A stretch of 64,000 nucleotides of DNA from Hyphomicrobiales bacterium (lineage in GTDB: Bacteria > Pseudomonadota > Alphaproteobacteria > Rhizobiales > JAJFHB01): contig JAJFHE010000013.1 in assembly GCA_021775755.1 (NCBI GenBank), positions 48,950 to 112,949 on the forward strand, given 5' to 3'. Made by a program: the position numbers and the translations under genes. Positions 4,063 to 29,706 of this stretch are shown in pieces; the stretch's first letter is position 1; each line of letters begins with the position of its first letter. The notes under the pieces were generated by a model. That model saw only the letters and a program-made list of their open reading frames with translations, ran no database searches and was not told where the DNA came from.

Positions 4063-5901
4063 GTGTCATGGAGTTTCTGCATGAGCGCACACAGCGCCAG
4101 CGAATGGATCTGCAGGGTCGAAGCGGCCGAAACTCTCGGCGAGTTCGTCGCCGCCGCCGATCATGCCGAAACCGCGCTTGAAGAGCTTGACGGTGCCTTG
4201 ACCGACGCCGAGGCCGCACGCCTTCAGTATCTGCTGGTGCGTGCGCTCGCGCGCATGGGGGTGGCGGAACGGGCGTTTGAACTCTATGAGCAGTTCGATA
4301 TCGGGCGCCATGCGGATGAAGACTGCCGGGCGCTCATGGGGCGCATTTTGAAGGAACAGGCGCTCGAGGCGCCGGCGCGCGATCGGTCTGCGAAGATGCG
4401 CAAGGCGGCTTCAGCATACGAAGCGGCCTACGACGAATTCGGCACAAGCTACACCGCCGTCAACGCGGCAACGCTGTTCAGCCTCGCCGGCGATGAGGCC
4501 AAGGCGCTCGAACTTGCCGGGTATACCCGTGCAGCCTGTGCTTCGGAGACCGGCCCCGAAACCTATTGGCGGGCCGCGACGCTCGCCGAAGCAGCACTCG
4601 TGGAACGCAAATTCGATGAAGCGCGCGATGCGTTGAAACGGGCAGGCGGCCTTGTGGCGGATCGCGATTTCGTAAACCGCGCCTCGACCCGGCGCCAACT
4701 CGACATTTTATGCCGTCATGTTGGTTGCACTACCGATATTCTGGACGGCATATCGATGCCCGGCGTGCTGTTCTACGCTGGCCACATTATTGCACCGCCG
4801 GGCGCGGAGGGGCGGTTTCCAGCGGACCAGGAAGATGCGGTCCGTGAAGCCATTTCTGATTTCTTCGAGACCAACAATGTCGGTTTCGCGTTCGGTTCGC
4901 TGGCGGCGGGCGCCGATCTCCTGGTCGCCGAAGAATGCATGCGGCGCGATGTGGACCTCTATGCGTTCCTGCCGTTCAAGCGTGAGGATTTCATCGAAAC
5001 ATCCGTGGCGACGGCGGGTGGCGATTGGCTGGAGCGATTTGAAACCTGCTATGCATGGGCTGAGGAGCGCGCCGGGGAAGATCGCGGCAGCATCACTTAT
5101 GCAACCGACGGTGCGTATCTCGGTGACGACAGCCTGTTCTCCTATTGCGCGGAGTTTGCCATGGGCCTTGCAATCCTGCGCGCGCGCCATCTGGCAACGG
5201 CCCCGCATATGCTGGCCGTTTATGACGACGCGGGCGGGACCGGATTTGGAACCGACGGCAATATCGAGATGTGGAAGCGGTTCGGCTTTCCAGCGGATAT
5301 CGTTCCTGTCGCCGGAAACCGGAAAGTTTCCCGGCCGCCGGCTGCGCCCCAACCCGATAAGCTGGAGCGCCGCCCACTCGCCATGCTGTTCGGTGATGTG
5401 AAGGGGTTCAGCGCGCTGAAGGAAGAGCTTCTGCCGCTGTTCCACGAAAGCCTGATGTCCGAACTGTCGGATGTTCTGGAAAGCTACGGGGCAAAACTGC
5501 TCTACCGGAACAGCTGGGGCGATGCGATATACGCCGTGTTCGAAGATGCGATTACCGCGATGCGCTGCGGACTGCAGTTGCAAAACAAAATCCGCAGCAT
5601 GGATTTTGAAGAACTCGGCTTCGATGGCGATCTCGGCCTGCGCCTCAGTGGCCATTACGGCCCGGTGTTTAAAGGCACCGACTACATTCGCCGCGAGCCG
5701 ACCTATTTCGGTTCACATGTCACCCGCACCGCACGTATTGAACCCATAACGCCAACGGGCGAGCTCTTCGTGACCGAACAGATGGCGGCCGCCCTTGCCA
5801 TGGAGAATGACGAGGCCATCGACTGCGACTACATGGGCAACATCGAACTTGCCAAAGGCTATGGCAGCATGCGGCTGTATCTCTTGAAGCACCGGGTCTG
5901 A
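4063..5901 (+). CDS. Multidomain signalling protein: N-terminal TPR-like helical region, central LOG/SLOG-like Rossmann domain, C-terminal class III adenylate/guanylate cyclase domain
   Basis: C-terminus has cyclase homology domain motifs (AMLFGDVKGFSAL ... RNSWGDAIYAVFED ... GLRLSGHYGPV ... GSHVTRTARIE); central region shows LOG-like glycine motifs (VLFYAGH, GFAFGSLAAGADLLVAEECM, DDAGGTGFGTDGNIE); N-terminus alpha-helical repeat-like. Confidence 0.7.
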   Translation: MSWSFCMSAHSASEWICRVEAAETLGEFVAAADHAETALEELDGALTDAEAARLQYLLVRALARMGVAERAFELYEQFDIGRHADEDCRALMGRILKEQALEAPARDRSAKMRKAASAYEAAYDEFGTSYTAVNAATLFSLAGDEAKALELAGYTRAACASETGPETYWRAATLAEAALVERKFDEARDALKRAGGLVADRDFVNRASTRRQLDILCRHVGCTTDILDGISMPGVLFYAGHIIAPPGAEGRFPADQEDAVREAISDFFETNNVGFAFGSLAAGADLLVAEECMRRDVDLYAFLPFKREDFIETSVATAGGDWLERFETCYAWAEERAGEDRGSITYATDGAYLGDDSLFSYCAEFAMGLAILRARHLATAPHMLAVYDDAGGTGFGTDGNIEMWKRFGFPADIVPVAGNRKVSRPPAAPQPDKLERRPLAMLFGDVKGFSALKEELLPLFHESLMSELSDVLESYGAKLLYRNSWGDAIYAVFEDAITAMRCGLQLQNKIRSMDFEELGFDGDLGLRLSGHYGPVFKGTDYIRREPTYFGSHVTRTARIEPITPTGELFVTEQMAAALAMENDEAIDCDYMGNIELAKGYGSMRLYLLKHRV

Positions 5902-5903
5902 TC

Positions 5904-6455
5904 ATGAGCCGCGCGTTCGTCAAGGAAGCCGATGGAGAAGATTTCGTTGAGGATCTGGTCGAGCGGCCGATCAGCCCGCACCCGAATTTCGTCACGGCCC
6001 GCGGGTTGGCGCTGATCGATGCTGAAATCGCGCGGTTGCAGTCCGAGTTCGTTGAGCAGAAAAGCGCCGGCGAGCGGGGCGCGGTGGCGCGCCTGTCGCG
6101 GGACCTGCGCTACTGGACGGCGCGGCGCACGAGTGCGCAACTGGTTGCGCCGACCGGTGGTCACGAAAGCGGCGGTCATGAACAGCATGGCCGCGGGAAG
6201 GGCGACCATGAAATCGCCGGATTTGGCGTGCTCGTTACCTTCGAGCACGAAGACGGGCGACGCCAGTCGTTGCGCATCGTCGGTGAAGACGAGGCGGATC
6301 CCGTCGAGGGTCGAATTTCATGGCGTGCGCCGATTGCCCAGGCTCTTGCAGGCTCGGGCATTGGTGATTATGTCGAGGTGCCGGCAGGCGAGGTGGAGAT
6401 TGTTGCTCTTGATGCCACGCCGGAACCTGAAACAACCAGTCTGCCGGGCGGATAA
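5904..6455 (+). CDS. GreA/GreB-family protein (Rnk-like regulator of nucleoside diphosphate kinase) with Gly/His-rich insert
   Basis: MSRAFVKEADGEDF... N-terminal GreA-like start, C-terminal FKBP-like GreA domain (VTFEHEDGRRQSLRIVGEDEAD...ISWRAPIAQALAG...GDYVEV); start 3 nt after stop of upstream cyclase gene. Confidence 0.65.
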   Translation: MSRAFVKEADGEDFVEDLVERPISPHPNFVTARGLALIDAEIARLQSEFVEQKSAGERGAVARLSRDLRYWTARRTSAQLVAPTGGHESGGHEQHGRGKGDHEIAGFGVLVTFEHEDGRRQSLRIVGEDEADPVEGRISWRAPIAQALAGSGIGDYVEVPAGEVEIVALDATPEPETTSLPGG

Positions 6456-27419: not shown

Positions 27420-29706
27420 CGTGCTGGACGACCCGGCCAAGATACAATCCAAGCGTTTGGCGGAGACACGCAAGAGCCTGCGAAAGGCAGAAATGCTGCT
27501 GGAAGCTTCGCGCAAAATTGCGTCGTTCGATAACCTGGACGATGCGCTGGAGGCGCTTGTCGAGCTTATCTCGAAGGAATTGGACGCCGAACGCAGCAGC
27601 CTGTTTCTGAACGATACCCTGACCGGGGAGCTTTACTCGCGCATTGCGCAGAAAACCCTGTCGCGTGAAATCCGTATGTTGAACAACGTTGGAATCGCCG
27701 GTGCGGTTTTCCAAAGCGGCACCGGTGAAATCATTCCCGACCCCTATGCGGACGCACGCTTCAATTCAGATGTCGATGAGCAAACCGGTTTCACCACCCG
27801 GTCCATCGTTTGTGCGCCGGTGAAAACGGCGGCGGGTGAAGTGATCGGTGTTACCCAGGCACTGAACAAGAAAAAGGGGAAATTCGGACAAGACGATCTG
27901 GAGCTTCTCGAAGCGATTGCGGCGCAAGCCGCCGTAACCCTGCAGAGCAAGCAGTTTGTTGAGCGGATGGAGAAGAACCGCGCACAGGAGATTGAGTTCC
28001 TCAACATTGTTTCAGACGTCACATCCGAACTGGAACTTGGCAGCTTGCTCACCAAAGTCATGGGTGAGGCGACGCGCATGCTGAATGCTGAGCGCTCGAC
28101 CCTGTTTCTCAACGATGAAAAGACGAACGAGCTGTTTTCGCGTGTAGCCATGGGCGATGCATTGGGCGAGATCCGGCTGCCCAATCATTTGGGCATAGCG
28201 GGCGCGGTCTTCACGTCGGGACAGACGGTCAGCATTCCATATGCCTATGCGGACCTTCGGTTCAATCCGGCATTCGACAAGCAGACCGGGTTCTTCACCC
28301 GCTCCATCCTGTGTGTTCCGGTGACGAACAAAGACGGCAAGATGATCGGCGTCACGCAGGTTCTGAACAAGAAAACCGGTTCGTTCACGGACGACGATGA
28401 GGCGCGGCTTCGGGCCTTTACCGCCCAGGTCTCCATTGCTCTGGAAAACGCCAAATTGTTCGAAGATGTCCAGAGCATGAAAAACTACAATGAGAGCATG
28501 CTGGAGAGCATGTCGAACGGCGTCATCACGATGGACGAGGAAGGAAAAATCGTCACCTGCAACGGCGCCGGCATGCGCATCATGAACGTGGAACCGGCCG
28601 ACATTCTGGGCAAGCCGGCAGTCGAGTTCTTCGTAAACAAAAACGCATGGCTGCCGGACCGCATCAAAAAGGTCGAGGAACGCGGGGAAGCGGACGTGCT
28701 CATGGACGTTGAACTGGAGTTCGGCGGCGAAACAATTTCGGCCAACATCAACGTGCTGCCTCTCCTTGGCGAGAAGGCGAAGAAGCTCGGTTCGATGGTA
28801 ATGATCGAAGATATTTCATCCGAAAAACGGATGAAGTCGACCATGTCCCGCTACATCGATCCAGGCATTGCCGACCAGCTTTTGGCAGGCAGCGATGCGG
28901 AGAACTTTCTGGGTGGAAAAAGCAGCGAAATCACGGTGCTTTTCTCCGATGTTCGCAGCTTCACAACTCTAACCGAGTCGCTGGGCGCGCAAGGCACGGT
29001 GGAGATGTTGAACGAGTATTTCACCATCATGGTCGACTGCATTACCCGTGAGGGCGGCATGCTCGACAAGTTCATCGGCGACGCCATCATGGCGGGCTTC
29101 GGCATCCCGATATCCTATGACGACGATGAGGACCGCGCTGTCCGGGCGGCCATCGCCATGATTGTGGAACTTTGGGAGTGGAACAAGCACCGCGAGGCAC
29201 AAAACAAGCTGGCGATCGACCACGGTGTGGGGCTTAACACGGGGCTTGTCGTCTCCGGTAACATCGGTTCGCCGAAACGCATGGACTATACGATGATAGG
29301 CGATGGAGTGAACCTTGCCGCACGGCTGGAGTCGGCTTGCAAGCAATACTCGGCCCGCATTTTGATCAGCGAATTCACGCGCGCGAAGCTGAAGGGGACT
29401 TACCGGTTGCGCGACGTTGACATGGTGGTGGTGAAGGGCAAGACCGAGCCGGTCAAGATTTTTGAAGTGCTCGATTATCACACGCCGGAAACCTTTCCAA
29501 ACCTGATGGACGGCGTTGGATATTTCAACGATGCGATCCAGCATTATCGCGCCGGTGAGTGGGATAAATCCGTTGCAAAGTTTTCCGAGGCCCTGACGGC
29601 TAATCCGGGCGACGAACTGGTAAATACCTATATCGCCCGCTGCGAACAGCTGCGGGCTAGTCCGCCAAAAGACTGGGACGGTGTCTGGGTTATGACTTCG
29701 AAATAA
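27409..29706 (+). CDS. GAF-GAF-PAS sensor class III adenylate/guanylate cyclase with C-terminal TPR-like tail
   Basis: Two GAF-like blocks (…FLNDTLTGELYSR…GIAGAVFQSG…CAPV and …FLNDEKTNELFSR…GIAGAVFTSG…CVPV), PAS (MLESMSNGVITMDEEGKIVTCN), cyclase motifs (ITVLFSDVRSFTTL…KFIGDAIMAGFG…GLNTGLVVSGNIGS…DYTMIGDGVNLAARLE). Confidence 0.8.
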   Translation: MASDVLDDPAKIQSKRLAETRKSLRKAEMLLEASRKIASFDNLDDALEALVELISKELDAERSSLFLNDTLTGELYSRIAQKTLSREIRMLNNVGIAGAVFQSGTGEIIPDPYADARFNSDVDEQTGFTTRSIVCAPVKTAAGEVIGVTQALNKKKGKFGQDDLELLEAIAAQAAVTLQSKQFVERMEKNRAQEIEFLNIVSDVTSELELGSLLTKVMGEATRMLNAERSTLFLNDEKTNELFSRVAMGDALGEIRLPNHLGIAGAVFTSGQTVSIPYAYADLRFNPAFDKQTGFFTRSILCVPVTNKDGKMIGVTQVLNKKTGSFTDDDEARLRAFTAQVSIALENAKLFEDVQSMKNYNESMLESMSNGVITMDEEGKIVTCNGAGMRIMNVEPADILGKPAVEFFVNKNAWLPDRIKKVEERGEADVLMDVELEFGGETISANINVLPLLGEKAKKLGSMVMIEDISSEKRMKSTMSRYIDPGIADQLLAGSDAENFLGGKSSEITVLFSDVRSFTTLTESLGAQGTVEMLNEYFTIMVDCITREGGMLDKFIGDAIMAGFGIPISYDDDEDRAVRAAIAMIVELWEWNKHREAQNKLAIDHGVGLNTGLVVSGNIGSPKRMDYTMIGDGVNLAARLESACKQYSARILISEFTRAKLKGTYRLRDVDMVVVKGKTEPVKIFEVLDYHTPETFPNLMDGVGYFNDAIQHYRAGEWDKSVAKFSEALTANPGDELVNTYIARCEQLRASPPKDWDGVWVMTSK

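Follow-up and report, generated by a model that had tools for sequence, protein, structure and literature searches.

The 64-kb window, that is, the whole stretch of DNA analyzed here, carries on its forward strand a reading frame at 4063..5901 that encodes 612 aa from a mechanically assigned GTG start at 4063, and this frame is followed by a second one at 5904..6455 (+) that encodes a Gre-family protein of 183 aa. The true start of the first gene is likely ATG 4081, which has GGAG 7 nt upstream and yields a 606-aa product (4081..5901, +); an identical NCBI protein (P0001) is also 606 aa long. Residue numbers throughout refer to the 612-aa frame. The stop codon TGA lies at 5899–5901 and the next ATG at 5904, leaving 2 bases between the genes. 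The three-domain gene with an adjoining downstream gene that had been proposed from the sequence is thus present, with a start that is probably at 4081 instead and with a gap of 2 bases. The protein has 668 homologues at E ≤ 1e-5, and family loci number at least 550 in species-representative genomes, so the reading frame is not a product of chance. At 50% identity and E ≤ 1e-30, the family comprises 821 clusters. The gene sits in an ordinary chromosomal context and is currently annotated only as an "adenylate/guanylate cyclase" or "TRAFs-binding domain" protein.

No terminator-like site was found between the two genes, and because of this and the 2-nt gap, their sequence suggests that they are probably co-transcribed. 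The downstream protein contains a GreA_GreB C-terminal domain (PF01272, 2e-15), and GreA (1grj) and GreB (2p4v) in the PDB match its residues 106–168. Its N-terminal part is divergent, is accompanied by a His/Gly-rich insert and shows no similarity to PDB entries in the N-terminal half. Among NCBIfam models, the best is NF004973 (PRK06342), whose cutoff of 159 the protein misses with a score of 144.3; its matches to the canonical GreA and GreB models are limited to the C-terminal part, and it does not reach a full-length GreA/GreB equivalog score. Identity with Rnk was considered and rejected, as NF004548 gave 20.5 bits (cutoff, 126; E = 3.5e-4) and NF004396 gave 16.1 bits (cutoff, 109; E = 7e-3). 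Pfam revealed no cNMP-binding domain in this protein.

Predicted sensory and catalytic domains of the cyclase protein

Pfam recognized TPR-S (PF20308) at residues 30–138 (45.9 bits; cutoff, 27.6) and Guanylate_cyc at residues 439–609 (35.2 bits; cutoff, 21.9). A full-length AF2 model of the monomer had a pLDDT of 93.9 and a pTM of 0.92. The protein comprises an N-terminal all-helical TPR-S domain (residues ~12–230; 4096..4752), a central YpsA-like SLOG Rossmannoid domain (residues ~232–416; 4756..5310), a linker with poor conservation and lower pLDDT (residues ~417–435; 5311..5367) and a class III nucleotide cyclase catalytic domain (residues ~436–610; 5368..5892), all encoded on the + strand. 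The definitions of SLOG and TPR-S reportedly go back to Burroughs et al. (2015) and Burroughs and Aravind (2020). The TPR-S domain scores above the Pfam gathering threshold and is structurally similar to the central regulatory region of ASK1 (MAP3K5). The parallel with ASK1 covers the N-terminal half, namely the TPR and the Rossmannoid domain, and is structural; the ASK1 signalosome differs in its domain order, in its kinase output instead of a cyclase and in its eukaryotic context.

The central domain was modeled as a three-layer alpha/beta Rossmannoid with a parallel sheet that matches solved SLOG proteins. Residues P233, G240, H241, G278, G283, D285, E290, P304, F305, S314, W322, R325, Y361, G368, D388 and G396 are invariant in the family. 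G240-H241 forms the end of beta1, and G278...G283-A-D285...A289-E290 follows beta2, all of these being invariant or at least 90% conserved among 72 sequences. The domain therefore displays both hallmarks, namely conserved Gly-rich and polar residues that follow strand 1 and, in the loop/helix behind strand 2–3, the GxD/E motif of YpsA-clade proteins. The three Gly-rich blocks of the original prediction were recovered, and they coincide with family-invariant G240/H241, with G278, G283, D285 and E290, and with D388, G396 and T397. In a local hhalign alignment, S279, G283, D285, A289, E290, P304, F305 and W322 were paired with S49, G53, E55, A59, E60, P79, F80 and W87 of YpsA, although the probability was not significant (0.15–0.2%) against either the YpsA sequence or a 20-sequence YpsA profile. 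Each paired position shows complete or almost complete conservation in this family and in YpsA alike, and G53-x-E55...A59-E60 is invariant within YpsA. A global hhalign run was uninformative.

Sequence-profile methods placed the central domain in no SLOG family: Pfam on 22 SLOG-domain sequences at E ≤ 10 returned noise alone, searches of the full protein with Pfam, NCBIfam and PADLOC gave no match in the central domain, and the family profile against all PDB sequences yielded no real match, with a chance hit to SNF8 at E ~1. SLOG membership thus rests on the predicted structure and the motifs, by which the domain is a SLOG lineage unannotated by sequence methods and missed by current Pfam models. 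The prediction of a LOG/SLOG-type Rossmann domain, for which profile searches against LOG/SLOG families had been suggested as a check, was accordingly borne out by the AF2 model and the motifs and not by the profiles, and in its SLOG part rather than its LOG part. The nearest relative is YpsA, and the position of the LOG catalytic Glu is variable: in G396-T397-x-x-[D/N/S]400, likened by analogy to the LOG motif PGGxGTxxE, whose catalytic Glu acts with the Arg of the first motif, residue 400 is D in 40, N in 17 and S in 15 of the 72 sequences, and Asn in this protein. YpsA (DUF1273/UPF0398), a SLOG protein of Bacillota, is a cell-division-related protein. It shares only 16% identity with the central domain, which has no Pfam DUF1273 match, and it stands alone, whereas the SLOG domain here is sandwiched between TPR-S and the cyclase.

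The C-terminal domain has the class III cyclase homology fold, and we assigned its catalytic positions from alignments to 3et6 and 2w01. The metal-binding residues D445 and D487 and the phosphate-binding K598 are present in all 72 sequences, and the transition-state R558 is present in 71. The substrate-specifying positions deviate: N483 (71/72) occupies the Lys/Glu position, and Thr, Asn or Ser occupies the Asp/Cys position at residue 547 (T547 here). Likewise, Thr or Ser at residue 554 (T554 here) replaces the canonical, ribose-orienting transition-state Asn across the family. Neither the canonical specifying pair, which is Lys/Asp in ATP-using and Glu/Cys-Ser-Gly in GTP-using enzymes, nor the transition-state Asn is kept. 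The predicted cyclase homology domain is hence upheld by the Guanylate_cyc match, the fold and the metal Asp pair, and since this pair is kept, the catalytic residues are not absent; the substrate-specifying residues, on the other hand, are non-canonical. The replacement of Asn by Thr/Ser makes the catalytic efficiency and the product uncertain, and, as far as the sequence indicates, the product base is not predictable from such an Asn/Thr pocket. Rv1900c of M. tuberculosis is a class III cyclase that also has a non-canonical pocket, but this family differs from it in the second specificity residue (Thr/Asn/Ser), in the transition-state Asn replaced by Thr/Ser and in its regulatory module. Class III cyclases work as dimers, whose head-to-tail arrangement creates the active sites.

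Gene neighborhoods in the family and in the window

Across the family, the partner gene that is conserved encodes a TIR-domain protein: of 80 related loci, drawn from several phyla, 41 have a TIR-like ORF no more than 4 kb away, directly adjacent (within 300 bp) in 29, while about half of the family loci have no nearby TIR. The orthologue of the cultured strain Arenimonas oryziterrae DSM 21050 is one with a TIR gene next to it. All 50 TIR neighbors retain the catalytic Glu. Eight of these neighbors were scanned with Pfam, which revealed TIR_2/ThsB_TIR followed by WD40, TPR or LprI, and none of the eight carries a CNBD. CNBD genes or in-frame CNBD fusions to family proteins occur in 23 of 92 loci, where the CNBD forms part of a transcription-factor module or a small protein. 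Fusion proteins with the order wHTH-BTAD-CNBD-TPR-S-SLOG exist among the best 150 hits of the representative search. In the subclade to which this protein belongs (12 close relatives), a TauD gene with a RiPP-like gene set is the dominant context, and TIR genes are found in 4 of the 12.

The protein in the window is an orphan copy, with neither a TIR-like ORF nor a CNBD or other cNMP-binding ORF within the 64 kb, and it keeps all sensor and catalytic residues intact. Of the other genes that commonly neighbor the family, TauD, MbnB-like, S8, radical SAM and nSTAND1 were likewise not found in the window. One weak, unrelated GAF match lies at 28006–28383.

Adjacency to a Gre gene was examined as a candidate family trait and discarded. 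In all 80 related loci, the 4 kb around the gene hold no Gre homologue, and a Gre-like neighbor was found in only 1 of the 12 close relatives (L083/L084), in which the cyclase is 53% and the Gre-like protein 58% identical to those described here and the two genes are 185 bp apart. The Gre/Rnk-like gene had been suggested as a functional partner, with constant adjacency as the point to check; it is missing from 11 of 12 close relatives, matches Gre factors in its C-terminal domain alone and falls far below the Rnk cutoffs. The link is a case of local synteny and not a conserved module.

Proposed signaling role and comparison with known systems

The architecture inclines us, by a narrow measure, towards a soluble receptor-cyclase that would sense through its ASK1-like TPR-S scaffold together with its YpsA-like SLOG domain and deliver its output through the class III cyclase. 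That the family usually adjoins TIR genes suggests the conversion of one nucleotide signal into another. What the data show are domain folds, residue conservation and gene-neighborhood statistics; which ligand is bound, what is produced, which way the signal runs and whether the Gre-like gene plays a part are matters of inference. In the reading that we somewhat favor, a nucleotide-derived small molecule would bind the TPR-S/SLOG module; family-wide, this ligand would most probably be a signal of ADP-ribose type that the TIR proteins encoded next door derive from NAD+. Binding would switch on the cyclase, which would emit a 3',5'-cyclic mononucleotide, and this cNMP may be read by Crp-like regulators, by small CNBD proteins encoded next to ABC exporters or, in some lineages, by CNBD-wHTH modules fused to the receptor-cyclase itself. 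The nucleotide-to-nucleotide relay of the original prediction is thus strengthened by the association of the family with TIR (41/80) and cNMP-binding (23/92) genes, and not by way of the Gre-like gene. A more tentative extension, which we hold to be possible but not probable, is a two-tier relay in which a TIR protein with a WD40 or TPR sensor of its own produces the NAD+-derived signal, the receptor-cyclase turns it into cNMP, and cNMP-binding transcription factors or exporters respond. Orphan copies, as in the window, may in that case have been co-opted for ordinary physiology, with an input from a TIR encoded elsewhere or from endogenous ADPR-type metabolites. We found no measured ligand, product or phenotype for any family member, and no experimental data on the TPR-S/SLOG/cyclase architecture, in the accessible literature.

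Of the other explanations, the one that survives best, though we consider it unlikely, is a physiological sensor-cyclase with no TIR link, in which an endogenous metabolite (NAD/ADPR, the nucleotide pool or the product of a neighboring biosynthetic pathway) would be sensed and the resulting cNMP would act on local genes, in relatives for example those for the export or production of a modified peptide. However, the window holds no TauD or RiPP-like gene, the frequency of TIR adjacency across several phyla is far above a plausible chance rate, and in other systems TPR-S and YpsA-like SLOG domains have been connected with signals that TIR proteins make. Somewhat less probable is a SLOG domain that acts as an enzyme and not as a sensor, either as a LOG/DRHyd-type N-glycosidase or as another processor of nucleotides or of derivatives of ADPR. 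Such a protein would have two functions, say the degradation or conversion of a TIR product alongside cNMP synthesis.

Still less probable is a reversal of direction on the pattern of Pycsar or Pucsar: the TPR-S/SLOG-cyclase would sense infection and generate the signal, and the neighboring TIR protein would be a cNMP-activated, NAD+-depleting effector. Pairs of a cyclase and a TIR protein are an established defense architecture (Pycsar, PucsarTIR; bioRxiv 10.64898/2026.08.12.744502), and the TIR neighbors of this family keep the catalytic Glu. However, Pycsar/Pucsar TIR effectors carry a cNMP-binding domain, whereas the eight scanned neighbors have WD40, TPR or LprI sensor-like regions instead; moreover, the CNBDs of family loci sit on transcription-factor modules or small proteins, and PADLOC Pycsar models gave no match. 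Finally, the proposal that the cyclase and the Gre/Rnk-like factor link cNMP to transcription elongation or NDK (nucleoside diphosphate kinase) regulation is very improbable: the implied co-transcription in this genome and the orthologous pair in one other lineage speak for it, but the survey of related loci, the lack of a cNMP-binding domain, the PDB similarity confined to the GreA/GreB C-terminal domain and the Rnk scores speak against it, and nothing points to NDK regulation.

If the receptor-cyclase does sense a TIR-made ligand, it would form a cascade that translates an NAD+-derived messenger into cNMP, thereby joining Thoeris/TIR signaling with cAMP/cGMP/Pycsar signaling, two fields investigated apart from each other until now, and it would add amplification and a transcriptional read-out. 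Apart from this, the analysis defines a large unannotated SLOG lineage (the 821 clusters and at least 550 loci given above); for this locus, the value is more modest, in that a poorly annotated gene gains a sensor-to-output hypothesis. The TPR-S family is said to originate from the work of Aravind and colleagues on TPRs in TIR signaling.

Among known systems, the Pycsar/Pucsar loci share with the TIR-linked loci of this family a class III-type cyclase next to a TIR protein. In Thoeris, the type I effector ThsA (SIR2-SLOG) senses 3'cADPR via its SLOG domain, and the type VIII effector ThsI, for whose TPR, according to its authors, Aravind and coworkers had predicted a role in bacterial TIR signaling, is activated by TIR-made canonical cADPR (bioRxiv 10.64898/2025.12.03.692087). 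The text of the 2025 Thoeris survey, together with its available supplements, lists no cyclase-type effector. With ThsA, our family has the SLOG domain in common. With ThsI, it shares a TPR followed by a Rossmannoid domain that belongs to the TIR-DRHyd-SLOG class, the TPRs being matched by description and not by sequence, and, for roughly half of its members, a TIR gene as operon partner. The two differ in that ThsI combines its TPR with a CMP-hydrolase/DRHyd-like domain, whereas the Rossmannoid domain here is YpsA-like SLOG, and in that this family adds a class III cyclase. The Thoeris-like feature of a TIR gene with an intact Glu belongs to the family (41/80) and is absent from this 64-kb window, whose copy has no TIR partner. 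Given the appended class III cyclase, this protein would put out a second messenger and not damage the nucleotide pool as ThsI does. The two-tier relay, if it exists, would then represent a Thoeris-type system in which the effector, instead of killing as an enzyme, generates a further signal and acts on transcription.

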